Part shown: one piece after another, positions 1 through 21,402 of the stretch
How positions within the stretch are numbered: the stretch's first letter is position 1
How the letters are laid out: every line of letters begins with the position of its first letter
Source of the DNA: an archaeon
GTDB taxonomy: Archaea; Asgardarchaeota; Heimdallarchaeia; Heimdallarchaeales; Kariarchaeaceae
Direction: 5' to 3'
Assembly: GCA_024280435.1 (NCBI GenBank)
Contig: JAJRQD010000138.1
Span: 1 to 24,000, forward strand
DNA: 24,000 bases
Program-made: the position numbers and the translations under genes
The notes under the pieces: generated by a model
Told to the model about the DNA's origin: nothing
Databases searched by the model: none
What the model saw: only the letters and a program-made list of their open reading frames with translations

Positions 1-114
1 TAGTAAAATGTTGTTTCTATGATATTGCAATATATTCTTATTTTGAGATTTTTGTTCAATTATTTTTTCAGTTTAATTTTTCATGGGAAATGTACAAGTT
101 TATTCAATCTTTTA

Positions 115-498
115 TCACATTATATTCTCCGCGAATTCCCCAATTCTTTGTAGTAATTTTTTGGTGGCAATATTATCTGCTGAAGTTGATAACCATACTT
201 CTTCACAACCCAATTCTTTTGCCACAGATATCTGATACTCTGTGATCATTCTGGCATTACCCAGACCTCTGAAATTTGGATGAGTTCTCATTGCTTCACT
301 CCATGCAATTTTATCAGAGTATAATCGTAAATTGGCAACAGACTGTATTCTTCCATCTTTTTCCAGTACAACTGGAAAACAATTCTTATTTTCTAATAAC
401 GAGTCAATGATATTTGGTAAATAATCATTACCATCCCAAATATCTCTGCATATCTCCTCAATAAAGGGATGATCTTCTAACTTATACTCGCGTATCAT
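115..498 (-). CDS. GNAT-family N-acetyltransferase (127 aa)
   Basis: Uninterrupted ORF. The GNAT acetyl-CoA motif A is visible as FRGLGNARM (R/Q-x-x-G-x-G/A), followed by a typical C-terminal N..A..L..+.GF-like segment (SADNIATKKLLQRIGEF). Confidence 0.8.
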   Translation of the reverse strand: MIREYKLEDHPFIEEICRDIWDGNDYLPNIIDSLLENKNCFPVVLEKDGRIQSVANLRLYSDKIAWSEAMRTHPNFRGLGNARMITEYQISVAKELGCEEVWLSTSADNIATKKLLQRIGEFAENIM

Positions 499-551
499 AT
501 TATTGAATAAATAGATTTATTATACTAATATTTGTAATTTATCTCAAATTA

Positions 552-869
552 TTATGTCATTACTTCTTCTAAATTGGATAATATCACCTGTTTTTTACCT
601 TCATTCCATGTGAAAGAATTCTGCAAAATTGACTGTATCTCCTCAACTTTGGCTTTTCTTTCCTTAAGGAGTTTAGCTCTTTTTGCCTCAGCTTTCAGTT
701 TCTCAACAATGTTCTCAATTGCAACCTCAATCAGAAAAACATCCTCTTCTCCCGTATTCTCTTCTTTTTGTATTGTCATCACCAAATATGACATGAGTGA
801 TATTTTTTTTCTATCAGTCCAATGCTCATTGTTGAGTATTCTATCAATTTTATTACCTAGATTACTCAC
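552..869 (-). CDS. Hypothetical protein, charged/coiled-coil-like (105 aa)
   Basis: Longest ORF in this interval. It is on the same strand as the GNAT gene and 53 nt upstream of it. It has a K/E-rich helical stretch (EKLKAEAKRAKLLKERKAKVEEIQ). No domain recognised. The overlapping + strand ORF 574..897 looks like a low-complexity shadow. Confidence 0.5.
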   Translation of the reverse strand: MSNLGNKIDRILNNEHWTDRKKISLMSYLVMTIQKEENTGEEDVFLIEVAIENIVEKLKAEAKRAKLLKERKAKVEEIQSILQNSFTWNEGKKQVILSNLEEVMT

Positions 870-962
870 AAATACTACTTTACTTATTATAATATAAATT
901 AATCTGAATATTGATAATAACTGTAATGATCACTCATAATTACTATGCAAATTATATCTAAT

Positions 963-2198
963 TTAATATTTTGTCTCATTTTGTAAATAGAGTAGATAGA
1001 TATCAAGTAAATTGATATTGTTAGTTGATATTTCCAATCCACAATTTAATGAGGAAAGTAAATTTCCAGTATCACCATTTGTCATGTAATCATCAAAATC
1101 TCTGATTCTAGAGAAGGTATTGTTGTCTATTACATATGCATGGTGAGGTGAGCTCCCATCCTGTCCATCTGTTGCGATTCCAATTACAAATGCTTCATTG
1201 AATAGAGATATTCTCTTTGACAGGTAGAAAAGAAGAATTGATATTCTTCCGCCTTTTCCACTGTTGCTGAAGTAACTAGTATCAACAGTGGGTTCTCCTG
1301 CAAATAAAAGTAAAGTATTATTTGACCTGCTCAACTTATTTATCATTCTATCGCCCACCTTTGTATAATCCCCTGTAATGTGAATATCAACTATCTCTAT
1401 CCCAATATTACTTATTCTCAACTTATCAACTAATTGTTCTATTAAATCATGCCTACTGGCGATAATTATATTATTATCCATTTTGATATTCATTCTCATT
1501 CTATTATCAAGTGAATCAAATGAAATATGTCTATCCTCCAATCTCTTCCTTAACCATTTCAGAGTACTCTTATCAAATTCAGATCTACTAACAGTAGGAC
1601 CAGAGCCAACATATGCGGGATCATCAGAAACCACATCTGAAACAATCCAGGAATGTATATCTGAATTTGAGAGTAGATTAATTAATTTTCCTGACTTTAC
1701 CTTATCGAGATAGGATCGAATGAGATTAAGGTTCTCTATTTCAAATCCTTTTTCAAATGCCTCTAAAGTGATTTCTCTGTACGCTTCAAAACTGACCCCC
1801 TCTTCCGGGATCGCAAATGCCGCAGAGGTACCTCCTGTAATTATTATATGTAATCTATGGTCTCTGTACTGTCTTAGGATTTCAACTACTTTGATTGAAT
1901 TATCAATATTTATTTTGGTTACTTGTGGATGGGTACTCTCGAAAAAATCAATATTATCAGATAACTCATCACGTAGTATTAAGTCATAATATCCCTGTAC
2001 CTGCAGAATAACTATTTTCTTAAAATTCATTTTATGTCTCAATTTACTTGCTAATATCAGAGCATTCTTTCCAATTGCAAAAAGTACTTGATTATCATGA
2101 AATTCATTATTTGAGACTATTTTCTCAATGATAAAGTCTGGAAATTCATTTATTATTTGTGAGTATGTATTTAGAATTGGTTGATATATAGACTCCAT
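963..2198 (-). CDS. Glycerate 2-kinase / MOFRL-family (DUF4147 + MOFRL) protein (411 aa)
   Basis: The family's motif series is present in order: AIGKNALILA (GKAA..MA), ITGGTSAAF (SGGGSALL), NLIRSYLDKVKSGKL (N.vRk.lS.iKGG.L), VSDVVSDDPAYVGSGPT (SDV.gDd...IaSGPT), FAGEPTV...GKGGR (GGEtTV...GkGGRN) and ATDGQDGSS (TDG.DG). Confidence 0.8.
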   Translation of the reverse strand: MESIYQPILNTYSQIINEFPDFIIEKIVSNNEFHDNQVLFAIGKNALILASKLRHKMNFKKIVILQVQGYYDLILRDELSDNIDFFESTHPQVTKINIDNSIKVVEILRQYRDHRLHIIITGGTSAAFAIPEEGVSFEAYREITLEAFEKGFEIENLNLIRSYLDKVKSGKLINLLSNSDIHSWIVSDVVSDDPAYVGSGPTVSRSEFDKSTLKWLRKRLEDRHISFDSLDNRMRMNIKMDNNIIIASRHDLIEQLVDKLRISNIGIEIVDIHITGDYTKVGDRMINKLSRSNNTLLLFAGEPTVDTSYFSNSGKGGRISILLFYLSKRISLFNEAFVIGIATDGQDGSSPHHAYVIDNNTFSRIRDFDDYMTNGDTGNLLSSLNCGLEISTNNINLLDIYLLYLQNETKY

Positions 2199-2315
2199 AT
2201 TTTTGATTTATGTCAAACATATATCAATAATTTGACTCTATCAAATATTAAAATGATGTACATTATTACTCACAATTTAGGAATAGTTTTAATAAATAAA
2301 TAATTAAATAAATGT

Positions 2316-2942
2316 ATGCACTGTGGAAACTGTGGTAATGAAAACAAAGAAGATTCACAATTCTGCCAATCCTGTGGTCAGACATTAGGGTCTGTACCCC
2401 AACAAACTAGCCAAGGTTATCAACCTCAAATGGCACAACCTAATTATTTCCAGCCTACTGAATATCAAGTTCAACAGAAATTGCTATCTATGACACAAAC
2501 ATATAAAATCAAGGATGCAAATGGAATCGAGTTCATGGTTGCAAGACGAAAGATGACCTCAATATTCAATCCAAAAATAGAAGTTAAAGATATGCTTGGT
2601 AATGATATAGGTTATGTGCAGGGGAATTTCTTCCGTACACGTTGGGAAGTATATGATTCCAATGAAAATCATCATGGAACAATTGAATTCCCATTCTTTA
2701 TGTTCTTCACCAAATCATTCACCATCACCACGCCTATTGGAATGTTTAGATCTGGTGGATCTGTTTTTGGAAAGAGATTTGATGCTTATGCTCCCGATGG
2801 AAGACTGAGCTTTGTCGTTGACAAAAAGCTATTCTCAATCCGAGATTCTTTCAAAGTTACAAGTAATGATCAGTTAGGACCATTTCTTACATGCATTGCA
2901 GCTGTTGTTATTGATCAGAAATTCAATACTGGAAATGAATAA
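2316..2942 (+). CDS. Zinc-ribbon + Q/P-rich linker + LOR/YxjI-like (tubby C-terminal-like, scramblase-fold) protein (208 aa)
   Basis: The N-terminus is CGNCGN-x9-CQSCGQ (a C-x2-C ... C-x2-C ribbon). A Gln/Pro-rich linker follows (VPQQTSQGYQPQMAQPNYFQPTEYQVQQ). The body then starts Y.V.QK..S....Y.I.D.NG with repeated beta-hairpin periodicity. It ends in a hydrophobic helix, LTCIAAVVIDQ, as in LURP-one-related/YxjI proteins. Confidence 0.65.
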   Translation: MHCGNCGNENKEDSQFCQSCGQTLGSVPQQTSQGYQPQMAQPNYFQPTEYQVQQKLLSMTQTYKIKDANGIEFMVARRKMTSIFNPKIEVKDMLGNDIGYVQGNFFRTRWEVYDSNENHHGTIEFPFFMFFTKSFTITTPIGMFRSGGSVFGKRFDAYAPDGRLSFVVDKKLFSIRDSFKVTSNDQLGPFLTCIAAVVIDQKFNTGNE

Positions 2943-3023
2943 TTTAACAAAGCATAAATAAAATACTCATCTCTCCATTATTAATATTAAAAATTTATTA
3001 ATTACTGTTATTTATTTGAATTA

Positions 3024-4793
3024 ATGCGGGTAGGCAGGATTAAAATAAAAGGTTTCAGATCAATCCGAGAGATTGATACAACTACATGCAATCTAACCTC
3101 TTTTGTGGGTGAGAATTCTTCAGGTAAATCAACAATATTACAGGCAGTGGATCTTCTACTGAGCTCAAAAAAAATTACAGAGCTTGATTTTCACAATATT
3201 CCCGGTTATAAATCAAATAGTTTTGAAATACTATGTACTTTTGAGTCAATCTCCGAAAATGATAAAAAATCATTGTTTGATTTATTTGCTATTAATTTCA
3301 ATTCTCTTAATTTTAGGAAAAAAGCAAAACTTGAGGACCTTAAGATAACTACAAGTATTGATATACCCGTTCCCAAAAATAAATTATTAGATATATCATA
3401 TATCAATGGGAGGACAAAACCTGAATACGAAGATGCGGTTAAGAATAATATACTTCCAAGTACTATTTTTGATACAGGAAAAAATATTGGGGATATTAAA
3501 GAAGGTATTGCCAAATATATCAAGGATAACATTGATAAAATAGAGTATTCAGGAGTAAAAAAAAGAATACTTAAAACCTCAGAGATGAAACAATTACTGG
3601 TAATACTGCCCGAGGCATTATATGTACCGGCTTTTGATGATATTAACAAACAAGTATCTTATAGCAAGACAAATATTTTTGGTAAATTATTAGAGCAGAT
3701 ATTTAAAAACTTGAGTAATAAAAATGATCTCACCTTGAAGACGATGAATACGCAGATCAATAACCTTACAAAGAAATTCAGAAGAGATGGTTCCTCAAGG
3801 ATCGAAGAATTTGAGAAATTGGAATCTCAGTTAAGTGGTTATGTGGAGGCAATTTTACCTGAATCAAAAGCTATTCTCACATTTGATATCCCCCCGATTG
3901 ATGAGCTATTGAAAAAATACTTCAGTATTGAATTAGATGATGGTATTGCAACTCCTGTTGAGAAAAAAGGACATGGTGCACAAAGGACACTTGTATGGTC
4001 GTTACTTAGAACCTATCTTGATAATCTCAGTGATAGAGGTAATTCAAGAGTACTGTTTCTAGTGGAGGAACCGGAATTATATCTACATCCACAGGCACAG
4101 AGAGTTATGCTGGGTGTATTAAGAGAGCTATCTAATTTTGATCAGGTTATATACAGTACTCATTCTCCAGTGTTTATTGGATTAGATCATCCAGATGAGA
4201 TCCGACTGGTGAGAAAAAGGAATAAACAGACTGTGATTGATATGATATCAAAGCATACACTAGAGCACTCTAAGAATGAGGTGAGATTTCTTACATGGCT
4301 AGATGATAATCAGGCCGAATTATTCTTTGCAAAATCAGTGCTTCTTGTTGAAGGCGATACCGAAAGAATACTCATGGAAGATATCAATCAGTATCGGCCA
4401 AATGGAATGTCTTTGGATGAGTTGGGATGTCAGGTAATAGTTACCAATGGTAAGTTTTCAATGCCATTTTACTGTAATCTATTGATGGACATCAAGATTC
4501 CATTCTTTGTTGTCTATGATCATGATAGTAGTCGTGGTCAGCATAAAGATGCAAATACTCACATAAACAATGCAGTTGGTAGAAGTAACAAAAGTATGGT
4601 ATTGGCAGATAAACATGTATTCTATCCATATTTTGAGAAGGATTGGGGGTTAAATTTGGGAGAAAACAGCAAGGTAGAGCATATACTTGGCCTTGTAAAT
4701 TCATGGAAAGAAAAAGGATCGCACCCTTCAAAATATGATGAGTTATCTAAAAAGATATACACATTTGCTGTGAATGCAAGAAAGCAGAAATAA
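3024..4793 (+). CDS. OLD-family ATP-dependent nuclease (ABC/AAA_15-type ATPase fused to Toprim), stand-alone class-1-like (589 aa)
   Basis: Walker A is GENSSGKST (aa 29-37). The Walker B/D-loop is VLFLVEEPELYLHP and the H-loop is THSP. The C-terminal Toprim has LLVEGDTERIL (catalytic Glu), VTNGK and VVYDHDS (DxD). Size and domain order resemble the phage P2 Old type. Confidence 0.8.
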   Translation: MRVGRIKIKGFRSIREIDTTTCNLTSFVGENSSGKSTILQAVDLLLSSKKITELDFHNIPGYKSNSFEILCTFESISENDKKSLFDLFAINFNSLNFRKKAKLEDLKITTSIDIPVPKNKLLDISYINGRTKPEYEDAVKNNILPSTIFDTGKNIGDIKEGIAKYIKDNIDKIEYSGVKKRILKTSEMKQLLVILPEALYVPAFDDINKQVSYSKTNIFGKLLEQIFKNLSNKNDLTLKTMNTQINNLTKKFRRDGSSRIEEFEKLESQLSGYVEAILPESKAILTFDIPPIDELLKKYFSIELDDGIATPVEKKGHGAQRTLVWSLLRTYLDNLSDRGNSRVLFLVEEPELYLHPQAQRVMLGVLRELSNFDQVIYSTHSPVFIGLDHPDEIRLVRKRNKQTVIDMISKHTLEHSKNEVRFLTWLDDNQAELFFAKSVLLVEGDTERILMEDINQYRPNGMSLDELGCQVIVTNGKFSMPFYCNLLMDIKIPFFVVYDHDSSRGQHKDANTHINNAVGRSNKSMVLADKHVFYPYFEKDWGLNLGENSKVEHILGLVNSWKEKGSHPSKYDELSKKIYTFAVNARKQK

Positions 4794-5741
4794 TTAATTT
4801 TTGTACTTGAATTTAGATATTTTTGCCCACCATCTGAATATTCTCATAGCTTTCAGTGTAATCACTCTGCTCATACCTTCTGATTCATATACAAACCAGT
4901 TCTCACCTTCTGGTACATAGTCTAATTTCCACAGTCCTTCTATCTTTTTATCTCTTAATAATTCAATTGCATCTATAAATCGTTCATCGAATCTGTGGTT
5001 AATTCTCTGAAAATAATCCAATGCTTCCAGTATATTGTATTCTAATCTTGTAGGAAAGCAGAACTTAGTAAATTTACCATCAATAATATCTTCTGAATCA
5101 GTTTTCTTAAACAATTTATGCTTAAGTAGAAATTCGTGTGCCATATTCTGCATACTCTCAATTGTGGATATATTAGCCTTATTTATCTTGGCATATTCAT
5201 ATAATCCTTCTAGTACAATGAGTGTGGTACTAAAAGAAGATTCTTTAGCACCTCTTTTGCGTGCACAGGACCATCCTCCGTCATCCATCTGGTTCTCAAT
5301 CAGAAACTCGAAAATTGCCTCTCTCCTTGGATGCTTGATTTTCAGATAGCTCATAGTTGCAAGCACAAGTGAGGATTGACATATCAAACTAGTTTCTGTT
5401 TCTTCTGCATGGTTGTATCCTCCATCCCATCGTTGGCCTGTCTCAAATATTACCCTCCCTCCCAGTTGAAATTTTGGAATATGATGAGAGAGCCCTAATC
5501 TTCTGAGTATCGTGACTACCCATAGAGTTGATTTCCATAAAGGTTCTATTATATTATCTCCCCAAGTACCCATTTCATCCTGTAAATTTAATAAATCAAA
5601 TACCCATCCTTTCTCTATCTCCACTAGCATCTGCTCTGTCTCAATCTTTTCCTTGGCAGAATCCAGTAGATCTCTATGTACCTGATATCGTGTTGATGGG
5701 TCTCCATCAAGCAGATATTCAATGACTTCTTGGTAGGACAT
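4794..5741 (-). CDS. Alpha/alpha-toroid repeat protein, terpenoid-cyclase/prenyltransferase-like (315 aa), function unknown
   Basis: Clean 315-codon ORF. It has repeated aromatic/Gly motifs typical of prenyltransferase/squalene-cyclase repeats (DEMGTWGD, RWDGGYNH, QMDDGGWSC). The C-terminal ITLKAMRIFRWW resembles the tail of bacterial proteins of this family. The functional call is tentative. Confidence 0.5.
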   Translation of the reverse strand: MSYQEVIEYLLDGDPSTRYQVHRDLLDSAKEKIETEQMLVEIEKGWVFDLLNLQDEMGTWGDNIIEPLWKSTLWVVTILRRLGLSHHIPKFQLGGRVIFETGQRWDGGYNHAEETETSLICQSSLVLATMSYLKIKHPRREAIFEFLIENQMDDGGWSCARKRGAKESSFSTTLIVLEGLYEYAKINKANISTIESMQNMAHEFLLKHKLFKKTDSEDIIDGKFTKFCFPTRLEYNILEALDYFQRINHRFDERFIDAIELLRDKKIEGLWKLDYVPEGENWFVYESEGMSRVITLKAMRIFRWWAKISKFKYKN

Positions 5742-5847
5742 TAAGATAAGATATAATGTATTATTAAAAAGTAAATTGTAATGATCTTAGCAAAATAGTA
5801 AATTATCAAGAAAAGAAAGAAGTAATGTATCTAGAAACTGAGAGATA

Positions 5848-6543
5848 ATGAATATACTCATAACAGGTGGAAGCTCTGGAATTGGTGCTGAACTTGCAAA
5901 GCGTTTATCAACAAAGGGCAATATGATATACATCACAGGTAGGTCTGCAAGTAAATTGGCAACTATAAATAGTATTGTTGAAAAAAAAGGTAGTACCTGT
6001 TTTTATGATGTGGGAGAGGTGGGTAATACTGTGGATGTCAAAAGAATTGTTGCAGATGCATTTACAAAAATGGAGTATATTGATGTACTGATACTCAATG
6101 CCGGTACTGGTTCATTCAAATTGGTGGAGGAGATGAGTGATGATGATTTTGATAAGCAATTTAATACCAATGTGAGGGGTGTATTTCTATTTTTGAGAGA
6201 AATCATACCACATATGAGAGAAAGGAAGAGTGGGCAGATAATTGTAACAGGTTCTAATTTAGGCTTCACAGGTACTGCCAGAGGATCAATCTATTCTGCA
6301 ACTAAATTCGCAATTCAGGGAATGGTATCAAGCATACGCCAGGAATTGATGGGTAGCGGAGTTAAACTTGGTACGATCAATCCTGGATCTGTGGATACAG
6401 AATGGTTTTCAAATCATGATAGGGATATTCCAAATCCCCGAAGATTGGATGTAGGTGAGGTGGTTGATGCATTTATGCTGATGATTAATCAGGGTGAAAG
6501 AAGTAATATCAATCATATTTTACTTAATCCATTGAACTCATAA
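5848..6543 (+). CDS. Short-chain dehydrogenase/reductase (classical SDR, 231 aa)
   Basis: The cofactor motif TGGSSGIG is at the N-terminus, with NAG downstream. The catalytic S...YSATK (Y-x3-K) is present, followed by the PG motif (INPGSVDT). Confidence 0.9.
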   Translation: MNILITGGSSGIGAELAKRLSTKGNMIYITGRSASKLATINSIVEKKGSTCFYDVGEVGNTVDVKRIVADAFTKMEYIDVLILNAGTGSFKLVEEMSDDDFDKQFNTNVRGVFLFLREIIPHMRERKSGQIIVTGSNLGFTGTARGSIYSATKFAIQGMVSSIRQELMGSGVKLGTINPGSVDTEWFSNHDRDIPNPRRLDVGEVVDAFMLMINQGERSNINHILLNPLNS

Positions 6544-6564
6544 AAAGATAGATAAAATATTTAT

Positions 6565-6593
6565 TGCGTATAGTAGAGACTATGCGCATTTTT
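6565..6593 (+). terminator. Hairpin plus T5 tract downstream of the SDR gene
   Basis: TGCGTATAGT (6565-6574) pairs with ACTATGCGCA (6579-6588), giving 10 bp including one G-U with loop AGAG. TTTTT follows immediately (6589-6593), 22 nt after the SDR stop. An oligo-T tract alone suffices for archaeal termination; the role of the hairpin is uncertain. Confidence 0.3.
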
Positions 6594-6906
6594 GAAATGA
6601 CAGTAGATTTGCTCTCTCATGCATAATTGATAATTGTGATGACAATATTTGTTTATTTGATTTTAATATAGAATTTTTAAATCGCGTTATTTTTTAATAA
6701 TAAATTATAAGTAAAAAAATATGGATTTTCTTTACATGTACTATCCAAATTATAATATTCGTGATTTACCATTTATTTTGTGCAAATATCCATTATTTCG
6801 TTAACAAAACAAAGAATTTACTTTATATGGTGAATTAACTACTTATAAGTACATTTTTTATCTCAACTGATAATTTATTAAGCTTTGAAATTTAAGATAA
6901 TTATAC

Positions 6907-7860
6907 ATGCTTTATTCCTTCTTGAAACATTATTTCTCTTTTTTAATGAATCTCTACTACAGAAAAATCGAGTATAATGGATTGGAGAACATTCCCGAGG
7001 ATGGTCCAGTGTTGATATACTCTAATCATCCAAATGCACTGATAGACCCTGTACTTATACTTACAAAGATAGATCGCAAAGTAACTCTAACCGTAACATC
7101 ACAACTGAGTTCTATTCCTCTATTAGGTGGTCTGCTACGGCGATTGAATGTATTATTCATACATCGAAGGTCAGATGGGCATTCGGAAAAAGTAATGAAG
7201 CATAATAGTGATACTATTGTTAACTGTGCCAACATATTACAAGAAAAACGGATGCTTCTTATTTTTCCTGAGGGGAGATCTTATCCAGATAATAAATTAA
7301 GAGAATTCAAAACAGGGATCGTGCGTATAATTAATGAGTATGAATCAAGAAATAGTGTGCAACTAACGATTCTACCTGTTTATATCCACTATTTGAGCAA
7401 ATCCAGATTTAGATCAGATGTATCTGTTAATTTTTTACCACATGAAAAATCTATTCTGAATTCTGAGCTAGACATAGTTGATAAGGTTAAAAAAATACGT
7501 GGCAATTTAGTAGAACAAGAAGTATTACTACAAGATAAAGCCTATGAAAAAGAACAAAAATTAACTGCAAAGATACTTCTCCTGGGATTTCAGGGATTAG
7601 TCTTGAGTTTACTTCCTGTCACTTTAATATATATTCTTGCTGAATTTATTGCTAAGAAGGAAGAGCAGATCGATACAACTCGAGTGGCACTATCTTTCCT
7701 ACTATTACCTCTATTATATTTAATGCAGTTATTTATTGTTTTTACACAATTATCATTGGCGTTTCTTGGAATGATATCATTAATTTCAATTTTTATTAAT
7801 TACTTATCAATTAAATTTATGAGATCTAATAATGGTAAAATATCAAACATCAATAAATAA
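6907..7860 (+). CDS. PlsC/LPLAT-family acyltransferase (1-acyl-sn-glycerol-3-phosphate acyltransferase-like) with C-terminal membrane helices (317 aa)
   Basis: Acyltransferase block I is NHPNALID (H-x4-D). Block III is FPEGRS and a block IV-like segment is ILPVYIHY. The C-terminal third is hydrophobic (LLLGFQGLVLSLLPVTLIYIL and LLLPLLYLMQLFIVF...). Confidence 0.75.
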   Translation: MLYSFLKHYFSFLMNLYYRKIEYNGLENIPEDGPVLIYSNHPNALIDPVLILTKIDRKVTLTVTSQLSSIPLLGGLLRRLNVLFIHRRSDGHSEKVMKHNSDTIVNCANILQEKRMLLIFPEGRSYPDNKLREFKTGIVRIINEYESRNSVQLTILPVYIHYLSKSRFRSDVSVNFLPHEKSILNSELDIVDKVKKIRGNLVEQEVLLQDKAYEKEQKLTAKILLLGFQGLVLSLLPVTLIYILAEFIAKKEEQIDTTRVALSFLLLPLLYLMQLFIVFTQLSLAFLGMISLISIFINYLSIKFMRSNNGKISNINK

Positions 7861-7978
7861 ATTTTCTATGATATTATATTCTTTAATTTCCTCACTTTAC
7901 AAGACTTTATGCATGATTACAGCAACTCATATTTAGATAGTATTATTAATTCTTATAATCTAATTTGTTTTTTATAGT

Positions 7979-8065
7979 AACTATTGACCATTATATCTAC
8001 ATAATTTGCGTTTTTTTAGCTATATCAATATGGTCTATCTGCTATTCTATAAATTTAAAAGTAAT
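7979..8065 (+). repeat. Direct repeat copy A (promoter/5' end of the TPR gene)
   Basis: The 34-nt core at 8020-8053 matches 10035-10068 at 33/34 positions. A 12/12 identical block AACTATTGACCA lies at 7979-7990 versus 10003-10014. The stretches between the blocks are similar but contain indels. The repeat contains the TATA-like TATAAATT (8049-8056) and the in-frame ATG at 8030. Confidence 0.85.
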
Positions 8066-8083
8066 CAAGTGCTAATTCTGTAT

Positions 8084-9070
8084 ATGGGTGATCTGCTCAA
8101 TCTTGCCAAAATATCGATTCATATAAAATCAAATGATTATAATATTGATAATAGAACCATCTCTCTGCTGGAAAAAATTGAATTTGATAATTCTTATGAG
8201 TTTAGAGATCTTAACTACTCAGTAGGCAGGATGTATTTCAAGACAAGAGATAGACAGGCACTAAAACACCTTCTCAATGCAATTGATCATTTTCATAATA
8301 ATAAAATCATCATAGAGATAAATATGATGATTGGAGTGCACTATCTCAGGGAGAAAAACTATGGACTGGCTGATAAATATTTTATGGCCTGTTATCCGTT
8401 GATGCCAGATGATTTTGAATTTGAGGGAGATAACTGGCCTTGGGTGGAGAAAGAGGAATGCTCATCACTTGATGTAAGTGACAGAATTGATCTGTATAAA
8501 TTCCTTGCACCCTACTTTGATCATATTGATATTAAAATATATTTTGAATCACTATTATTCCAGTTGAGATGCAATGAGACTGTGCAATTATTGAGAAAAG
8601 GTCACCATAAAAAGGTATTAATTCATTTTGATGCATTGTTTGATAGTATGCCATATCTGAATATGGAGAAAATCGAGGAATTAAGGATTGAATTCAGAGA
8701 GAATAGAAAACATGATCTTGGTATACAGATATTTGATATGGCAACATTATTTCATTATCAGGCAATTGCTCATTGGTCTCTCTCTGATTTTAAAATTGCA
8801 AAATCACTATTCATTGAGAGTATGGATTACAGAGAGAAAAATGGACACTATCTGGATTTATCTGGTACTTATTCAAATATTGCTATGGTAAATAATAATT
8901 TACAGAATTATTCTGAAGCAATTAAATACTTTGAGAAATCACTTGAACTGATTAATAATTTTGGTAAGGAAGTGGATTTAATACCTAATTTTATTAATCT
9001 AGTGAGAACATATCAATTACTTTTTGATTTTAAGAGTGCCTTGATTATTGCAAAAAAATATATTCAATAA
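8084..9070 (+). CDS. TPR-repeat protein, N-terminal part (frame 2), interrupted by a frameshift at 9052-9058
   Basis: TPR-like helical repeats are present (e.g. YSNIAMVNNNLQNYSEAIKYFEKSLELINN). I prefer the ATG at 8084, about 30 nt downstream of TATAAATT. Alternative in-frame starts are ATG 8030 and the TTG 8006 used by the ORF track. Confidence 0.7.
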   Translation: MGDLLNLAKISIHIKSNDYNIDNRTISLLEKIEFDNSYEFRDLNYSVGRMYFKTRDRQALKHLLNAIDHFHNNKIIIEINMMIGVHYLREKNYGLADKYFMACYPLMPDDFEFEGDNWPWVEKEECSSLDVSDRIDLYKFLAPYFDHIDIKIYFESLLFQLRCNETVQLLRKGHHKKVLIHFDALFDSMPYLNMEKIEELRIEFRENRKHDLGIQIFDMATLFHYQAIAHWSLSDFKIAKSLFIESMDYREKNGHYLDLSGTYSNIAMVNNNLQNYSEAIKYFEKSLELINNFGKEVDLIPNFINLVRTYQLLFDFKSALIIAKKYIQ

Positions 9071-9108
9071 GCAAAAATAGTGATGATATACACATTCGAG
9101 TAAAAGCA

Positions 9109-9816
9109 TTGCAACATCTGGCATTGACATATTTTTATTTACAAGATCATACAGAGGCAATATCTATTACTGAGAAATGTTTGGCTTTACTTGGTAATGT
9201 TAATGATCCAAATATTAAGTCCAATGTTTTATACAATTTTATTTTTCTACATAATAGAACAAATCAATTTGATAAATCAGATAAGCTACTAATCGAACTC
9301 AAATTATTGAAAGATAAAAATATCAATAATAATATACTAATTGAATATTATGTTGCCAAAATGGATTACTATTACTCACAAAAGATTATTGATCTAAAAT
9401 TATATGAAAAATTATTAAAACTAATTTTAGATGCAAATAATAAAGTTAATGATGCGATTTTCGAAACAGCTATTTTACAATTAATTAGCATAGATACCAA
9501 AACAAAGAATTTTACAGTATTTGATACGTTTAAGAACGATAAATTATTTTATAATAAACTAGATAAAATATCAAATTTTTCTATCAAATATCATTTGAAA
9601 CTTGTAGAAATGCAAACATTAAATCTGAACAAAAGAAAACACCTCCAAGAAAGAATAAAATTGGATATTGAAAGCACATGCAATAAAAATATGAAAAAGC
9701 TAATGGATGATCTCCTAACTGATTTTGATAAAACGCCGATACAAGGCTTAATTATGATTAATGATAAATTAATTGATTATAATTTGAATTACAGGTACTA
9801 TGAATTAAAATTGTAA
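9109..9816 (+). CDS. TPR-repeat protein, C-terminal part (frame 1), probably continuous with 8084..9070
   Basis: The only start the track finds is a TTG. The frame is already open from 9034. The sequence reads as TPR (ALQHLALTYFYLQDHTEAISITEKCLALL). It is very AT-rich: only 10 G/C in the 60 nt at 9361-9420. Confidence 0.7.
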   Translation: MQHLALTYFYLQDHTEAISITEKCLALLGNVNDPNIKSNVLYNFIFLHNRTNQFDKSDKLLIELKLLKDKNINNNILIEYYVAKMDYYYSQKIIDLKLYEKLLKLILDANNKVNDAIFETAILQLISIDTKTKNFTVFDTFKNDKLFYNKLDKISNFSIKYHLKLVEMQTLNLNKRKHLQERIKLDIESTCNKNMKKLMDDLLTDFDKTPIQGLIMINDKLIDYNLNYRYYELKL

Positions 9817-9826
9817 ATTAGATTTG

Positions 9827-9934
9827 TTAAGGTGTTATACAATCAGTAGCAGTGTCTACTCCATTTGAACATCCTGATGCTACATTAAAAGTTAGGGCTA
9901 CCACAATTGGTAGTAATAGTATTGTTAATTTCAT
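9827..9934 (-). CDS. Small ORF 1: 35-aa predicted secreted/lipobox peptide MKLTILLLPIVVALTFNVASGCSNGVDTATDCITP
   Basis: It has an ATG start and a TAA stop, and is too short for the ORF track. The N-terminus is a signal-peptide-like n/h/c region ending A-S-G-C. The predicted mature part is C-x9-C. A paralogous copy 270 nt away shows codon-level conservation. Confidence 0.45.
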   Translation of the reverse strand: MKLTILLLPIVVALTFNVASGCSNGVDTATDCITP

Positions 9935-10002
9935 GATCATAGATCTGTTGAACAGTTTGACGAATGCTTTTGTCATGTAAAGTCTTTAAAGAATACTATA
10001 AA

Positions 10003-10080
10003 AACTATTGACCACTATTATTTGTGTTTTTTAACTATATCAATATGGTCTATCTGTTATTCTATAAAATTAAAGTATTA
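10003..10080 (+). repeat. Direct repeat copy B (orphan copy of the TPR promoter/5' end)
   Basis: Same blocks as copy A. Here the ATG (10045) opens only a 12-codon ORF, MVYLLFYKIKVL*, compared with MVYLLFYKFKSNQ... in copy A. Confidence 0.85.
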
Positions 10081-10104
10081 TGAATTAAATATTGATGTCT
10101 AAAA

Positions 10105-10206
10105 TTAGCAATTTGTAAGGATAGAACCACCTATTACGCAACCTTAAGTAATTTCAACTGATAAGGTTATCATAATTGATAGTAAGAGTATTGCTAATTT
10201 CATCAT
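10105..10206 (-). pseudogene. Small ORF 2: paralog of small ORF 1 with an in-frame TAA (M)MKLAILLLSIMITLSVEIT*GCVIGGSILTNC*
   Basis: It matches the 5' end of small ORF 1 at 26/32 nt (10179-10210 versus 9909-9940). Homology continues through the ORF. TAA (10144-10146) replaces the TCA Ser codon just before the conserved G-C. Its ATGATG start overlaps the TGA stop of the upstream methyltransferase. Confidence 0.4.
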
Positions 10207-10826
10207 CTCAATTTTTTAAATAATGTATATATGTATGGTCTCTCAGCCTCACTTGGTGTAATATATACATGATCAAATGATTCAATTAATTTATAATTGG
10301 ATCCTAGTAACTCTATTAGCATGTTTACTGAATAATTTATAACATCAAGTCCACTGCATTTTTTAGCACCACCAATTGCAAACACGGCTATTATTACAAA
10401 TCCTCCTGATACAACTATTTTATTCATCAGTTCAATATACGCATCTCGTTGGTCCTTTTCAACCAGAAAATGAAGTAGTGCCCGATCCTGCCATAATACT
10501 ATATTTCTCAATTTTTGCAGTTCAGTGGGCTTTGTTACATCATCAACTATCCATGTAATTTTACTGGCATTCTCACCTAGGCGTGATTTCAATATATTCA
10601 GGGCAATCTCACTTATATCTGCAACTATTATATCTTTGTATTCCTCAAATAGTAAATTATCTATCAGGGTTGTTGCACCACCTCCTATCACCAGTATCTT
10701 ATTATTTTTATCAATTTTAGTGGAATTTATCAGATCTATACTCTGTTGTGGGCATTTCTGATACCATCCCAGTTTATCTACTGTACCCTTTCCATAAACA
10801 TTTTCCCAATGCTCTTTTGAACTCAC
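10203..10826 (-). CDS. Class I SAM-dependent methyltransferase (207 aa)
   Basis: The N-terminal HWENVYGKG....LGWYQ..P..SIDLI lead-in is followed by motif I, ILVIGGGATTLIDNLL. The acidic post-I residue is in VADIS and motif II is WIVDDVT. The start codon is GTG at 10826. Confidence 0.8.
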   Translation of the reverse strand: MSSKEHWENVYGKGTVDKLGWYQKCPQQSIDLINSTKIDKNNKILVIGGGATTLIDNLLFEEYKDIIVADISEIALNILKSRLGENASKITWIVDDVTKPTELQKLRNIVLWQDRALLHFLVEKDQRDAYIELMNKIVVSGGFVIIAVFAIGGAKKCSGLDVINYSVNMLIELLGSNYKLIESFDHVYITPSEAERPYIYTLFKKLR

Positions 10827-16091: not shown

Positions 16092-18977
16092 TTATTGATT
16101 TTTCAATGCTTTCTTCAAGAATTTAGCAGTATGACTTTTTCTACTTCTCGCAACTACTTCAGGAGTACCCTTGGCAACTACCTTTCCCCCTCCAATTCCC
16201 CCTTCAGGCCCTAGATCTATCACATAATCTGCATTCTTGATTACATCCATATTGTGCTCAATAATCAGTATTGAATTGCCCTTGTCAACTAATCTATGCA
16301 GTACCTCAAGCAGTTTTTTCACATCATGCTTTGATAGACCGGTGGTTGGTTCATCAAGTAAAATCAATGTTTGCCCAGTGACATTTTTTCCAAGCTGTTT
16401 GCTTAGTTTAATCCTCTGTGCCTCTCCACCCGAAAGAGTGGTTGCACTCTGCCCAAGCTTTAAATAACCACAACCAACATCCATCAGAGTATCAAGTATT
16501 TTCTTTATCTTGGGTATATTTTTGAAAAACTTGTGTGCTTCTGCTACACTCATATCCAGTATATCTGATACATTCTTACCCTTGTATGTAACTTCCAATG
16601 TCTCTGCATTGAAACGTTTACCCTTGCACACATCACATTCCACAAAAACATCACCCATGAAGCTCATCTCAATCTTGTTGTATCCATTACCTGAACAGGC
16701 CTCACATCTTCCTCCCTTCACATTGAATGAGAACCTACCCTTGGCATATCCCCTTAGCTTGGCAATCTGTGTCTGTGAGAATATATCTCTGACATGATCA
16801 AATATCTTGGTATATGTACTCGGGTTTGAACGGGGTGTCCTGCCAATTGGTTTCTGATCTATCATTATCACCTTATCAAGATATTCAAGGCCTAGTATAC
16901 TACCATACTTTCCTGGCTTATCCTTGGCACCATGAAATTCTCTTGCCAATGCTTTCCACAGAACATCTGTTATCAGAGATGATTTTCCAGATCCTGATAC
17001 TCCTGATATTACTGTTAGTACACCAAGAGGTATGTCCACATTGATTTTTTTCAGATTATTATGTGATACTCTCTTCATATTGATCCAGTTACTGTTTGGC
17101 TCTCTTCTGTGGCGTGGTGTTTCAATATCCCATTCACGTCTCATATATTTACCCGTGATTGTATCTGCTGCTGCAATCTCCTCTGGCGTACCATAAGCCA
17201 CAATCTCACCTCCATTAACACCTGCTTCAGGACCTAAATCCAGTATGAAATCAGCTGATTCAATAGTCTCATCATCATGCTCAATCACTACAATAGTATT
17301 TCCAAGATCTCTTAGTTCAAAAAATGTGTTTAATAATCTTTGATTATCCCTTTGATGTAGGCCTATTGATGGCTCATCAAGCACATATAGTACTCCAACT
17401 AGCTTAGATCCTATCTGTGTTGCCAATCTTATTCTCTGTGATTCTCCACCTGATAATGTTGCAGACTTTCTGTCAAGTGTTAGATACTCTAGACCGACCT
17501 CTTTCAGAAATCCAATTCGGCCCTTGATCTCAAGCAGTACCTGTTCTGCAATAAGTGCATCTCTCTCAGTAAGTTCTATATTATCAAAGAATTCATAGGC
17601 ATCACCTACACTTAATTGAACAATTTCCATAATGTTCTTACCACCAACCAGCACTCCAAGTGATGCAGGTTTTAATTTATGCCCTTTACATTCTGGACAG
17701 GTATTATATGCCATGAATTGTTCATAATATCTTCTTGCTCCATTGGACTTGGTATTTTTATGTCTTCTATATATTGTATTGATAATTCCTTCTGTCTTTC
17801 TATCAGATTCATATTTCCAGGATCTCTCTCCCTTATCTCCCTCAAATTTGAATTTAATGCGGTCTTCAGATCCATATAACATGGCATCAAGTGCTTTTTT
17901 AGGTAGATCTTTGATTGGTGTCTCCAGATCACCTCCAAAATGCTCTAACACAGTACCTATCTGTTTTACACTCCATGAATTTGAATCCTGGCTGAAGAAA
18001 CTTAAACCACCATCTTTGATACTGAGGTTCTTATCTGCAATCAGTAAATCTGCATCCACTTCAGACACAAATCCCAACCCTGTACAATGATTACATGCAC
18101 CAAGTGGATTATTGAATGAGAATATTCTTGGATTAAGTTCTCCGATTGATATTCCACATTCTATACAACCTGCAAATTCATGATAGAGCACAGTCTCTAT
18201 ATTTTTTGGATCATCAAGATAATCAATTCTCACTCTCCCCTCTGCTCTTCTAAGAGATGTCTCGACTGCCTCGTTTAACCTCCCACGTATCCCCTCTTTT
18301 ACTCTCAACCTATCAATCACAGCTGATATATCATGTTTGAAATTCTTATCCAGTTTTGGAGTCTCCTCATCTAACAGATACTCAACACCATCCACATCTA
18401 ATCGGTTGTATCCCTCTTTTTTCAATTCTGCAAATAATCTGGTGAATGTACCCTTTTCCTTGATAACAATGGGTGCAACAACTCTAAACCTTCTGCCCTC
18501 CTCATTCATTACCTTCTCAACAATTTGCTGTGCAGTGAGAGATCTCACCTCTTTTCCACAGTTGGGGCAGTGTGGAATGCCAATTGATGCATATAATATC
18601 CTGAGATAATCCATGATCTCAGTCACCGTACTGACAGTTGATCTGGGATTGCTTGAGGATGTTTTCTGTTCAATACAAATTGCAGGTGATAATCCTCTGA
18701 TTGATTTGACATGTGGTTTCTCCATTCTTCCGAGAAATTGTCTGGCATAAGAGGATAGAGATTCCACAAATCTTCTCTGCCCCTCTTTGAATAGTGTATC
18801 AATTGCAAGTGATGATTTACCTGATCCTGAGAGACCTGTGAATACTACGAACCTATTTCTTGGTATGCTGGCATTTACTCCCTTTAGATTATGTTCATTA
18901 GCCCCTTCGATTTCGATCCATTGTAACACATCTCGTTTATCTGGTAATGGTAATCTTCTGTTGATTTGTACAGTCAT
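16092..18977 (-). CDS. uvrA: Excinuclease ABC subunit A (961 aa)
   Basis: There are two ABC ATPase modules (GLSGSGKSS and GVSGSGKSS). The signatures are LSGGESQRIRLA and LSGGEAQRIKLS. Zinc-finger cysteine pairs are present (CPNCG, CIECG, CNHC, CPECKG, CEACSGNG, CDVCKG). Confidence 0.97.
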   Translation of the reverse strand: MTVQINRRLPLPDKRDVLQWIEIEGANEHNLKGVNASIPRNRFVVFTGLSGSGKSSLAIDTLFKEGQRRFVESLSSYARQFLGRMEKPHVKSIRGLSPAICIEQKTSSSNPRSTVSTVTEIMDYLRILYASIGIPHCPNCGKEVRSLTAQQIVEKVMNEEGRRFRVVAPIVIKEKGTFTRLFAELKKEGYNRLDVDGVEYLLDEETPKLDKNFKHDISAVIDRLRVKEGIRGRLNEAVETSLRRAEGRVRIDYLDDPKNIETVLYHEFAGCIECGISIGELNPRIFSFNNPLGACNHCTGLGFVSEVDADLLIADKNLSIKDGGLSFFSQDSNSWSVKQIGTVLEHFGGDLETPIKDLPKKALDAMLYGSEDRIKFKFEGDKGERSWKYESDRKTEGIINTIYRRHKNTKSNGARRYYEQFMAYNTCPECKGHKLKPASLGVLVGGKNIMEIVQLSVGDAYEFFDNIELTERDALIAEQVLLEIKGRIGFLKEVGLEYLTLDRKSATLSGGESQRIRLATQIGSKLVGVLYVLDEPSIGLHQRDNQRLLNTFFELRDLGNTIVVIEHDDETIESADFILDLGPEAGVNGGEIVAYGTPEEIAAADTITGKYMRREWDIETPRHRREPNSNWINMKRVSHNNLKKINVDIPLGVLTVISGVSGSGKSSLITDVLWKALAREFHGAKDKPGKYGSILGLEYLDKVIMIDQKPIGRTPRSNPSTYTKIFDHVRDIFSQTQIAKLRGYAKGRFSFNVKGGRCEACSGNGYNKIEMSFMGDVFVECDVCKGKRFNAETLEVTYKGKNVSDILDMSVAEAHKFFKNIPKIKKILDTLMDVGCGYLKLGQSATTLSGGEAQRIKLSKQLGKNVTGQTLILLDEPTTGLSKHDVKKLLEVLHRLVDKGNSILIIEHNMDVIKNADYVIDLGPEGGIGGGKVVAKGTPEVVARSRKSHTAKFLKKALKNQ

Positions 18978-19173
18978 TCTATCCTCTCTAGATTGTCAAT
19001 ATTGCAATAATTGCTCTGGGAATATATGAATATTGAAAGGAGAATATAAAAAGTGAAATTCAATACTCTGAAAAATATTTTGATATATAAGCTACTGAAT
19101 CAGATAATATTGATTTTACTGCTTTTATAATTGCTGAAGTCATAATCTTCACTTTTAATTTTAAACAGATATT

Positions 19174-21171
19174 TTATTTATTTCTCTCTATAATCAGTAA
19201 TTCATTGAGCTCTTTTATCTTATCTCTGAGCTCTGCTGCCAGTTCAAATTCAAGATTATCTGCTGCCTCATTCATCAGACCTTTCAATTCACCTATCATG
19301 GTAATCAGCTCAGATACCGCTACCTGATCATCTACCTTGTATTTTGCCAATTTTGCCGATGCTTCATCTGATAGTGTTTCAAGTACTGAGAAAATACCCT
19401 TGACAATTGTTTTTGGAGTAATATTATTGTCCTTGTTGTGTTTCAACTGTATTTTTCTCCTTCTGTTATTCGCTGTGATGGCTTCTCTCATCGAATCTGA
19501 TATTGTATCTGCATACAGTATCACCATACCCTCTGCATTTCTAGCAGCTCTTCCCATAATCTGTGTCAATGAGCGGGTACTTCTAAGAAATCCCTGTTTA
19601 TCTGCATCTAGTATCGCAACCAGGCTTACTTCTGGAAGATCCAATCCCTCTCTCAGTAGATTGATACCAACAAGTACGTCTATCTCTCCTCCTCTCAGTG
19701 AATTCAGTATTTGTACTCTTTCCAGAGTATCAATGTCTGAGTGCATATACTGGGATTTCAATCCTGATTTGGCAAAAAAATCTGACAGGTCCTCAGCCAT
19801 CCTCTTGGTCAGAGTAGTAACAAGTACTCTCTCCCCTCTCGTAATTCTCTTCTCTACCTCCACCATCAGATCATCCACCTGGTTTTTAGATGGTCTAACA
19901 TCAATTGTTGGATCAACAAGGCCGGTAGGCCTGATAATCTGTTCCACTACCTGATCTGATTTATCTAGTTCATACTCTGCTGGAGTTGCACTCACAAATA
20001 AAGTGGTTGGCATTCTCTTCTCAAATTCCTCCCATCTCAATGGACGATTATCATATGCACTTGGTAATCTGAAACCATGATTGATAAGGTTCTGCTTTCT
20101 GGAAAAATCTCCTCCATACATCCCTCTCACCTGTGGCAAGGTAACGTGACTCTCATCAACAATCATCAGAAAATCATCTGGAAAATGATCAATCAGTGTA
20201 TATGGTGGATCGCCCGGTAATCTTCCATCAAAATATCTTGAATAGTTCTCTATACCGGAACAATATCCTAGCTCTTCCAACTGTTCCAGATCATAATGTG
20301 TTCTCTGGGTTATTCTCTCCGCAGATACATAGTTCCTGTTTTTCTCAAACTCATCCACTCTTTCTCTCAAATCATCTCTTATCTGATGTAATGCTGATTT
20401 AATCTGTTCCTCTTTTGTCAAATACTGTGTGGAGGGGTATATCACAATCTCATCTGGAGTATCTATTCTATTTCCCGTTAATGGATCTATAATTGTTATC
20501 TGTTCAACCTCATCACCAAAAAATTCCACTCGTATACCCTCTTCTTGATATATGGGCTTTATCTCAACCCTATCTCCCTTGGCTCGAAAAGTCTTGGATT
20601 TGAAATCCATCTCGTTTCTTCTGTATTGTAATTCCACAAGTCGACTGAGCAGACTATCTCTCTCAAGCTCCATACCTTTTTTTAATTTGATTGTGAAGTC
20701 TCTGTAAGTTTCTGGAAGACCAACATTGTATATGCAGGATACTGAAGCCACAATAATCACATCTTCCCTCTCTGCAAGTGCTTTTGTTGATGCGTTTCTC
20801 AGTTTATCAATCTCTTCATTGATATTGAAATCCTTGGCAATATACAGATCTTTTGTTGGCATGTATGCCTCTGGTTGGTAGTAATCATAAAAGCTGACGA
20901 AATATTTCACCGCATTATTGGGGAAAAAATGTTTGAACTCTGCGAATAATTGTGCTGCAAGTGTTTTGTTCGGTGCAATCACCAGTGTTGGCTTGTTAAG
21001 TTTGGCAATTATATGTGATGCAGTGAACGTCTTTCCAGAGCCGGTTACCCCGTGTAGTGTCTGAAATTTGTACTTTTTATCTTTATATCCATTAACTAGT
21101 TTATTAATTGCCTCTGGTTGATCTCCTGTGGGAGTATAATCAGTCTTCAGCTCAAACCTGTTGTCACTCAT
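19174..21171 (-). CDS. uvrB: Excinuclease ABC subunit B (about 665 aa)
   Basis: Walker A is GVTGSGKT, and DESH, helicase motifs and the C-terminal UVR domain (FELAAELRDKIKEL) are present. The track ORF begins at 21231. The conserved N-terminus (MSDNRFELKTDYTPTGDQPEAI) starts at the second Met, at 21171. Confidence 0.95.
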   Translation of the reverse strand: MSDNRFELKTDYTPTGDQPEAINKLVNGYKDKKYKFQTLHGVTGSGKTFTASHIIAKLNKPTLVIAPNKTLAAQLFAEFKHFFPNNAVKYFVSFYDYYQPEAYMPTKDLYIAKDFNINEEIDKLRNASTKALAEREDVIIVASVSCIYNVGLPETYRDFTIKLKKGMELERDSLLSRLVELQYRRNEMDFKSKTFRAKGDRVEIKPIYQEEGIRVEFFGDEVEQITIIDPLTGNRIDTPDEIVIYPSTQYLTKEEQIKSALHQIRDDLRERVDEFEKNRNYVSAERITQRTHYDLEQLEELGYCSGIENYSRYFDGRLPGDPPYTLIDHFPDDFLMIVDESHVTLPQVRGMYGGDFSRKQNLINHGFRLPSAYDNRPLRWEEFEKRMPTTLFVSATPAEYELDKSDQVVEQIIRPTGLVDPTIDVRPSKNQVDDLMVEVEKRITRGERVLVTTLTKRMAEDLSDFFAKSGLKSQYMHSDIDTLERVQILNSLRGGEIDVLVGINLLREGLDLPEVSLVAILDADKQGFLRSTRSLTQIMGRAARNAEGMVILYADTISDSMREAITANNRRRKIQLKHNKDNNITPKTIVKGIFSVLETLSDEASAKLAKYKVDDQVAVSELITMIGELKGLMNEAADNLEFELAAELRDKIKELNELLIIERNK

Positions 21172-21402
21172 TCTCGCACCTGTAATTATGTAATTTTCAC
21201 AAGATATAATTGCAATGGTAGAAGCAATCATATTTTCAAATTATTTTATATTGCAAATTATATTATAAAAAACAGATGACTGATAATTACAAGTGAATTT
21301 ATCCTTGCTATCTTCTCTGTATTATTATTAAACAAACTATTTGTGTATGTGGAATAAAAGATGATTTTTAAACATGAGTTGGGTACTTAAATTTAGAATA
21401 AC

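Follow-up and report, generated by a model that had tools for sequence, protein, structure and literature searches.

We describe a pair of convergent genes in an archaeal DNA stretch of 24,000 nucleotides (contig JAJRQD010000138.1 of assembly GCA_024280435.1, positions 1 to 24,000), hereafter called the window. One gene encodes a tetratricopeptide repeat (TPR) protein, and the other is a small open reading frame (sORF) for a short peptide whose head resembles a signal peptide. As judged by sequence comparison, the two form a two-gene module confined to one lineage, the Heimdall-group Asgard archaea. It is very probable that the module is real and conserved, and we consider it likely that the TPR gene and the sORF are functionally coupled. 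Our best reading, which is offered tentatively and draws on sequence features and on analogy, is that a cognate secreted peptide is paired with a cytoplasmic TPR partner in a manner analogous to the RRNPP/Rap-Phr pherotype systems. The original prediction for this region had named four linked elements, namely the TPR gene, the convergent peptide gene, a second peptide gene that overlaps a methyltransferase gene, and a duplicated promoter module. All four are present in the sequence where they had been placed. The comparative evidence rests mainly on two Asgard lineages, and no description of such a TPR/peptide module was found in the searchable literature.

The linkage between a TPR gene and a short gene for an apparently exported peptide, as originally proposed, recurs in all seven single-length members of the TPR family that have readable downstream DNA, the window included, with gaps of −4 to +10 nt. 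Six of these members are paralogues from one metagenome-assembled genome (MAG) of a Candidatus Heimdallarchaeota archaeon (GCA_026702845.1), where each has a convergent sORF at its 3′ end (gap −4 to +9 nt). Co-occurrence in a related genome had been suggested as a check of the prediction, and it holds six times for the TPR/sORF pair but not for the methyltransferase gene, which does not accompany them. The six sORFs lie at L065 5433-5585 (…MLKTKLLRITIALLPFLLGIICSGSACDYYLEESFGC, given from the hydrophobic head, as are the next three), L065 7608-7760 (…SGTACGAGTDKILGC), L066 7596-7709 (…TGTACDHTDHFVGGC), L067 7570-7698 (…TGSMDPYICTDEAGNPITDC), L070 6602-6745 (MIKYLKLLNRSFAIKAFVLILPLLLGIVLGSAGNCEMPDGSTAFDCE) and L070 8018-8158 (MINYLKFINRSFTIKIFVLLLPLFLGIVFGSAENCETPDGRTLIDC). 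No sORF follows one truncated copy of the TPR gene. The fetched DNA, 898 kb in all, holds 3113 ORFs of 30-75 aa. When these were scanned for a hydrophobic head with a C-x9-10-C tail, only eight carried this pattern, and seven of the eight abut TPR-family genes, which exceeds what chance would give. The sole background match (L032 4650-4871, + strand) is a Cys-rich secreted 73-aa peptide from a Bacteroidia MAG that is unrelated to the module. The paired genes can be packed extremely tightly. The TPR and sORF stop codons of L066 overlap on opposite strands (TTAA, 7596-7599), and the two genes of L067 abut with zero gap. Because the 3′-3′ packing is so tight at these loci, the TPR and sORF transcripts probably overlap as antisense.

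In the window, the TPR-family gene spans 8084..9816 (+), although the public record splits it into two ORFs at 8084-9070 (328 aa) and 9109-9816 (235 aa). Frame 2 starts with the ATG at 8084 and ends in a TAA at 9068-9070; from 9058 onward, frame 1 is open as far as a TAA at 9814-9816. The reading frame shifts by −1 at an A7 homopolymer (9052..9058, +), where A8 would restore it. Adding one A to this run yields a product of 577 aa, in agreement with the approximately 577-aa protein of the original prediction, with a conserved N-terminal part (residues ~70-260) and a variable C-terminal half. Intact homologues of 516-533 aa (P0016, P0011, P0013, P0014) align with the repaired product over its full length, and the alignment is unbroken over the junction. 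An AlphaFold2 model made with ten family sequences is an uninterrupted, all-helical hairpin superhelix (pLDDT 80, pTM 0.76), and the frameshift site falls within its most confident part. Because the repaired product aligns in this way and the modelled superhelix continues across the frameshift, the two annotated TPR ORFs are one gene, which either lost its frame through a 1-nt deficit in the homopolymer or is mis-assembled at this site. Pfam assigns TPR_12, TPR_8, TPR_1 and TPR_2 to residues 261-326 of the repaired protein. The protein has no transmembrane segment (maximum hydropathy over 19 residues, KD19, of 1.04) and no signal sequence, and from this sequence we infer that it is soluble and cytoplasmic. 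Neither half of the TPR protein matches anything in PADLOC. The locus has a GC content of about 30%, and Rfam and tRNA scans of the window returned no match.

The TPR family was defined by an exhaustive HMMER pass over 1.84 billion representative proteins, in which only seven proteins reach E<=1e-30 and generic TPR proteins rank below. Its alignable members, including the window protein, P0011, P0013, P0014, P0016 and others, share an N-terminal part that carries the motifs ADxYFMxCWP, WPW, RIDLYxF, FQLRC[NQ]E, EFRExRKxDLxxQxFDxGTxYHYL and NFEES and is followed by TPRs. This N-terminal part has no match in Pfam or the PDB, and by these sequence measures the proteins make up a new TPR family whose conserved N-terminal part is uncharacterised. 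The Heimdallarchaeota MAG, so called after the NCBI name of its neighboring proteins, is the source of most members that could be traced, and one of its loci also holds fibrillarin, Nop5 and an Arf-like GTPase. With the repaired TPR protein as query, a word-index search of proteins returned that protein alone; with the family profile as query, it returned that protein, the fragment P0108 and generic TPR proteins, and nothing else. No members were found in a Joint Genome Institute (JGI) metagenome scan with the family profile or in a scan of viral contigs. Four metagenome loci matched by P0016 lack the family N-terminal part and were set aside as generic TPR proteins. Two double-length members, L068 6001-9261 (1086 aa) and L071 5001-8249 (1082 aa), consist of two units fused head to tail.

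The partner of the TPR gene in the window is an intact sORF, peptide 1, at 9827..9976 (−). Its 49 codons read MTKAFVKLFNRSMIMKLTILLLPIVVALTFNVASG and then CSNGVDTATDCITP, which corresponds to a signal-peptide-like head and a 14-aa tail, and its C-terminus (...ASGCSNGVDTATDCITP) shows a C-x9-C pattern. The gene is convergent with the TPR gene at a stop-to-stop distance of 10 nt, just as originally predicted. However, the 35 codons that had been assigned to it count from the ATG at 9934, and an ATG at 9976 gives 49. We favor the longer form because of the position of a TATA-like box and because of an N-terminal K[LF]xNRS motif that window peptide 1 has in common with the L070 peptides. This box (TTTTTATAG, 9996..10004, −) serves peptide 1 with a leaderless geometry, and a TTTTTA[TA][AG] box about 27 nt ahead of the longer start is common to the window and both L070 copies. 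The sORFs are uncalled in the window's own public record.

Eight aligned peptides, among them a degenerate second copy in the window, are built alike: the N-region contains K/R, LLP lies at the center of the hydrophobic core, small residues come next, and then two Cys residues 9-10 apart. Both Cys residues are kept in all eight, and the second lies at, or no more than three residues from, the C-terminus. All seven intact copies are 37-50 aa long. The 15-aa hydropathy maximum of the peptides is 2.35-2.83, and small residues occupy positions −3/−1 in seven of eight, a placement favored by signal peptidase I. In the signal part of the four L065-L067 copies, there are 5-8 synonymous versus 1-4 non-synonymous codon differences in 24 codons, a ratio that indicates purifying selection on the signal-like head. 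The sORFs of these loci also have a conserved CTTAATAAT box about 27 nt ahead of the ATG. Given the excess of synonymous differences, the retained Cys residues and the TATA-like boxes, the sORFs appear to be translated. Export and cleavage of the peptide seem somewhat more probable to us than not, on the strength of the signal-like features. The predicted mature peptides have a net acidic composition, which sets them apart from membrane-active peptides of the cationic kind.

The peptides had also been described as carrying a lipobox, and this lipoprotein reading was rejected. The Cys is off position +1 of the predicted cleavage site in three of seven peptides, namely those of L067 (…GSMDPYIC), L070a (…SAGNC) and L070b (…SAENC). 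Furthermore, a strict lipobox ([LVI][ASTVI][GAS]C) fails in the window, where the sequence is A-S-G-C and an A takes the place of L, V or I at position −3. Like bacterial-type lipoproteins, the window peptide and three peptides of L065/L066 have small residues and then Cys at the predicted cleavage site, but in the L067 peptide and both L070 peptides the Cys lies 2-5 residues off. Because the position of the lipobox Cys is not conserved, lipidation is not a feature of the family.

Variation is distributed unevenly over the module. When whole units of the MAG paralogues are compared as DNA, the 5′ half of the TPR gene is 80-95% identical, its 3′ half and the mature peptide about 40-50%, and the sORF head 65-78%. 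The protein identities are 70-81% for the N-terminal part of the TPR protein, 25-28% for its C-terminal part, 77-92% for the signal, and 9-45% for the mature peptide. The L070a/b pair, which is closer and more recent, is intermediate (75, 53, 75 and 64% for the N-terminal part, C-terminal part, signal and mature peptide, respectively). Because the genes converge, the variable half of the TPR gene and the mature-peptide codons form one contiguous hypervariable cassette between conserved arms. As a pattern of sequence identity, this is compatible with cognate co-diversification of peptide and partner and with recombination in the arms as well, processes that do not exclude each other. In agrBDCA and comQXPA, the signal and the part of its partner that sets specificity likewise lie in one contiguous hypervariable DNA block with conserved flanks. 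The module resembles these systems in having such a block between conserved sequence. It differs from them in that its partner is a soluble TPR protein and in that a histidine kinase, an AgrB-type protease and an isoprenyl transferase are not among its components.

It seems reasonable to speculate about how a secreted peptide and a cytoplasmic TPR partner might operate. The sORF is a leaderless gene with its own TATA-type promoter, and it encodes a pre-peptide of 37-50 aa. The N-region of this pre-peptide contains K/R, its hydrophobic core spans about 17 aa around a central Pro, and positions −3/−1 are occupied by small residues. Sec export and a signal peptidase cut would then release an acidic peptide of 11-16 aa with a disulfide between Cys residues 9-10 apart. 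Perhaps the hypervariable C-terminal half of each TPR protein reads the variable loop of its own peptide, and the conserved N-terminal part might couple this recognition to a common target. That the pair carries out ligand-receptor signalling is a possibility we raise guardedly, by analogy with known systems.

RRNPP-type pairs have been described for Bacillota and their mobile elements, and signature criteria for them have been published (PMC10075063). By our count, the module agrees with four of these five criteria, with the Sec (or PptAB) export signal being predicted from signal-like features. The propeptides (37-50 aa in the seven intact copies) are within the 10-100 aa range, the putative receptor contains TPRs, and the two genes are direct neighbors. 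As an analogy, this fits the original suggestion that the locus follows an RRNPP-like organizing principle. The module is also like the RRNPP or RRNPPA peptide quorum-sensing systems of Bacillota, their phages and plasmids (Rap-Phr, NprR-NprX, PlcR-PapR, Rgg-SHP, AimR-AimP) in that a small propeptide gene with a predicted Sec-type head adjoins the gene for a cytoplasmic TPR protein, and in that many paralogous pairs are present per genome. As in RRNPP pherotypes, the export head is conserved and the C-terminal part, which is the active part in those systems, is variable. Moreover, Rap resembles the TPR protein of the module in having an N-terminal part that is not annotated as TPR, followed by TPRs. 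In contrast to RRNPP systems, the host is an Asgard archaeon rather than a member of Bacillota, the receptor has only generic TPR similarity (NprR E 3e-13 in sequence) and an HTH was not detected in it, the genes are convergent with abutting stops, the two conserved Cys residues point to a disulfide-looped peptide, not a linear one, and the promoters are leaderless and TATA-driven. The module may work like an RRNPP pair, but we do not class it as a member of this group because specific homology is absent and TPRs of the LGN/Pins type match far better.

The TPRs of LGN/GPSM2/Pins and kinesin light chain are the best matches of the TPR protein (profile E 1e-34; Foldseek 1e-7). Like it, they are TPR_12-type superhelices, and they hold extended peptides in their inner groove. 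They differ in being eukaryotic scaffolds and in matching only the central repeats (profile ~190-400), not the N-terminal part.

Several observations weigh against the proposal that the module is a cognate pair of secreted peptide and receptor. The published signature specifies a receptor of 250-500 aa, and at 577 aa in the window and 516-533 aa in most relatives the TPR proteins exceed it; those within the range are the L070 type (379 aa) and the L065a copy (441 aa) alone. Similarity to the Rap/NprR/PlcR/PrgX/Rgg/AimR clade is generic TPR similarity alone. Rap and NprR appear at rank 38-47 of a fold search (E ~1e-4), and LGN, OGT and designed TPR proteins outscore them by far. Pfam and PDB searches found no recognizable DNA-binding or enzymatic output domain in the TPR protein, and a cytoplasmic receptor needs the peptide to be re-imported. 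The family is known from very few genomes, and no sORF follows the two double-length members (1082 and 1086 aa). The hypervariable co-variation could partly reflect adjacency and flank recombination instead of binding. Finally, decay in the window and in L070a, described below, suggests that the modules are dispensable.

A 2025 study puts the number of earlier cases of true quorum sensing in archaea at just three, and in no case is the signal a peptide (PMC12240190). We consider it doubtful, though worth stating, that the module is the first archaeal peptide-pheromone/receptor (pherotype) system, with secreted disulfide-looped peptides, cognate cytoplasmic TPR receptors and hypervariable cassettes of which a genome carries six or more. 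If this were true, the prokaryotes most closely related to eukaryotes would have a system for communication between cells or for kin recognition, and the module would supply a concrete hypothesis for peptide-mediated recognition in that lineage. For annotation, sORFs of 37-50 codons are being missed in Asgard MAGs.

An alternative that we judge unlikely is that the peptide is an exported effector (archaeocin-like, antagonistic or involved in kin discrimination) and that the TPR protein is a cytoplasmic immunity or chaperone protein that binds the precursor or the re-entering peptide, either as protection for the producing cell or to keep the peptide ready for export. Toxin/immunity-like co-diversification would account for a hypervariable peptide and partner between conserved flanks, for many paralogous pairs in one genome, and for frequent decay, and a cytoplasmic TPR protein could meet an unprocessed precursor only in the cytoplasm. 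However, the mature peptides of 11-16 aa are net acidic and neither amphipathic nor cationic, and a Sec-exported peptide calls for no cytoplasmic immunity unless it is re-imported. There is also no PADLOC or toxin-family match, and no export or processing genes are linked to the loci.

Less likely still is the idea that the product is a membrane micro-protein, uncleaved or in some copies lipid-modified at the Cys, whose variable Cys loop serves as an identity tag on the outside, and whose N-terminal K-L-x-N-R-S tail docks the TPR protein as an adaptor. This would explain why the window and L070 peptides have a conserved N-terminal motif on the cytoplasmic side, and why a conserved N-terminal part of the TPR protein parallels a conserved peptide head. 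In addition, a permissive lipobox, with [AGS]-C preceded by small or hydrophobic residues, can be read in four of seven peptides. Yet the hydrophobic stretch is 17-20 aa including the c-region and has a central Pro or Gly, which is typical of cleavable signals, and the small residues at −3/−1 noted above point in the same direction. The N-terminal motif is absent in the L065-L067 subgroup, where the corresponding DNA is promoter, and hypervariability of the C-terminal half of the TPR protein would have to be explained by linkage alone.

Returning to the window, its module has been duplicated and is now decaying. Copy 1 of the promoter module (7973..8075, +) lies upstream of the TPR gene, with a TATA-like TTCTATAAATTTAAAAG at ~8045-8061, about 30 nt before the ATG at 8084. 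Copy 2 (9997..10077, +) is a direct repeat of it; the repeat extends over about 100 nt and its core is 94% identical over 48 nt. Copy 2 is directly followed by a relic of the last eight codons of a second TPR gene (10076..10102, +; 27 nt, YYELNIDV-stop versus YYELKL-stop of the first copy), and a second peptide gene, peptide 2, comes next. From this order, it follows that the region is a tandem duplication of promoter, TPR gene and convergent peptide gene, and that the whole second TPR ORF has been deleted. Promoter copy 2 is an orphan because its TPR gene is gone. Thus, the duplicated divergent promoter of the original prediction is real as a repeat but is the footprint of a tandem duplication rather than a regulatory design.

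Peptide 2 (10105..10206, −) is a pseudogene that reads MMKLAILLLSIMITLSVEIT, an in-frame TAA at 10144-10146, and GCVIGGSILTNC before its final stop, and it is without the N-terminal motif and without a promoter of its own. It is 72% identical to peptide 1 in DNA over 69 nt, aligned up to the internal ATG of peptide 1. In the frame of peptide 2, a stop codon precedes the ATG by four codons, and the space of the missing N-terminal segment and promoter is occupied by the methyltransferase gene. The decay that had been predicted for the locus is therefore borne out: the first TPR gene is frameshifted, the second is deleted, and peptide 2 is truncated and has a nonsense codon. Peptide 1 alone is intact in the window module, unless the A7 run is an assembly error. 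Decay of modules recurs, since one TPR paralogue of the Heimdallarchaeota MAG has an in-frame TGA in place of an Arg codon (L070 5902-5904).

A sister assembly (GCA_024278115.1) matches window positions 1-8352, with 11 mismatches by position 7866 (the first 7.9 kb), and carries an identical start of the TPR gene. The contig of this assembly stops short of the frameshift site, inside the TPR gene at window position 8352, and the next recovered contig begins in uvrA. Promoter copy 1 of the sister (L064 7990-8344, equivalent to window 7990-8352) has an 8-nt deletion that makes it resemble copy 2. From the same assembly, there is no recorded relative at least 90% identical to the C-terminal half of the TPR protein, the methyltransferase, FeoA or FeoB. 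At window positions 7866-7915 (+), the promoter and start of the sORF have a weakly matching inverted copy (TATTCTTTAA…ACTTTAC…ATG; inverted repeat I2, 71%) that faces the TPR gene, and this may be a third relic of the module. In contrast, a candidate third copy of a 22-nt repeat at 10226-10247 was rejected, as it falls in conserved coding sequence for the C-terminus of the methyltransferase.

The original prediction had also assigned the class I S-adenosylmethionine (SAM) methyltransferase gene to the cassette, and this does not hold. The gene (10203..10826, −) is intact and of bacterial affinity, and it is a neighbor that lies outside the module. Its own match to Methyltransf_25 is weak (E 3.6e-4), but all eight aligned members of its family match Methyltransf_25/11/12 (best E 2e-14) with an invariant GxG (G48, G50) from the GxGxG motif of the Rossmann-type domain, and a PDB sequence search with it returned no match. 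The 63 relatives found in species-representative genomes are all bacterial and at most 46% identical (best full-length match 44%), with representatives in Flavobacteriaceae, Gammaproteobacteria and Acidobacteria. None of these 63 loci has a TPR-family gene or matching sORF near the methyltransferase homologue, and none of the six modules of the Heimdallarchaeota MAG has an adjoining methyltransferase. By these sequence relationships, the gene is probably a horizontally acquired bystander of bacterial origin.

The overlap between the methyltransferase TGA (10205-10203) and the ATG of peptide 2 (10206-10204) exists as an ATGA, as had been reported. However, because of the upstream stop, the missing N-terminal motif and the internal TAA in peptide 2, it joins an intact gene to a 5′-truncated pseudogene, and translational coupling as a functional design was rejected. 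These findings bear directly on the proposal that the locus encodes a cassette for a ribosomally synthesized and post-translationally modified peptide (RiPP), in which the methyltransferase modifies a Cys-loop peptide translated through the ATGA overlap and the TPR protein acts as a scaffold. In its favor are the reality of the overlap and the intact enzyme. Nevertheless, we find this proposal very hard to credit. The coupled peptide is a pseudogene, the six other modules and the 63 bacterial loci separate the enzyme from the module genes, and the methyltransferase ends at its natural C-terminus (…YTLFKKLR versus …YTLFKRI in homologues). With the methyltransferase outside the cassette, the RiPP reading loses its enzyme.

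Last, an AT-rich genome holds many spurious small ORFs and the sORFs are uncalled in the window record, but it is highly implausible that they are chance ORFs or, as the original prediction had allowed, N-terminal debris of a larger ordinary lipoprotein gene, given eight homologous copies with conserved head and Cys spacing that stop right after the second Cys, purifying selection on the head, a TATA-like box at each sORF, the specificity of the pattern scan, and the finding that no fetched locus contains a longer homologue.

Other genes in the window bear on its host. No Shine-Dalgarno sequences are visible, and TATA-like boxes lie about 25-35 nt before the ATG of many window genes. The nearest named relatives of its tyrosyl-tRNA synthetase (TyrRS; 21403-22485, +) are from Candidatus Kariarchaeaceae, of the Asgard lineage (Promethearchaeati), at 72% and 68% identity. 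In the PDB, this TyrRS matches the yeast and human cytosolic enzymes (E 1e-101 to 1e-100) better than euryarchaeal ones (E 1e-78 to 1e-59), and bacterial matches are poor. By these sequence affinities the host is an Asgard archaeon, and the archaeal setting of the original prediction is upheld.

Several neighboring genes deserve brief mention. An OLD-family ATPase with a TOPRIM nuclease domain is encoded at 3024-4793 (+; PADLOC Old E 2e-75, also GajA-like; Pfam AAA_15, OLD-like_TOPRIM), and a 315-aa gene of no assigned family (4794-5741, −) abuts it on the opposite strand. The two are a candidate defence pair of this Asgard genome. The gene at 6907-7860 (+) encodes an acyltransferase of the PlsC type (PF01553) whose C-terminal extension is hydrophobic; it belongs to an ester-lipid synthesis family, here in an archaeal genome. 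Finally, bacterial-type uvrA and uvrB genes are adjacent at 16092-21231 (−), and uvrC is nearby in a contig of the sister assembly (L072 7858-9756).

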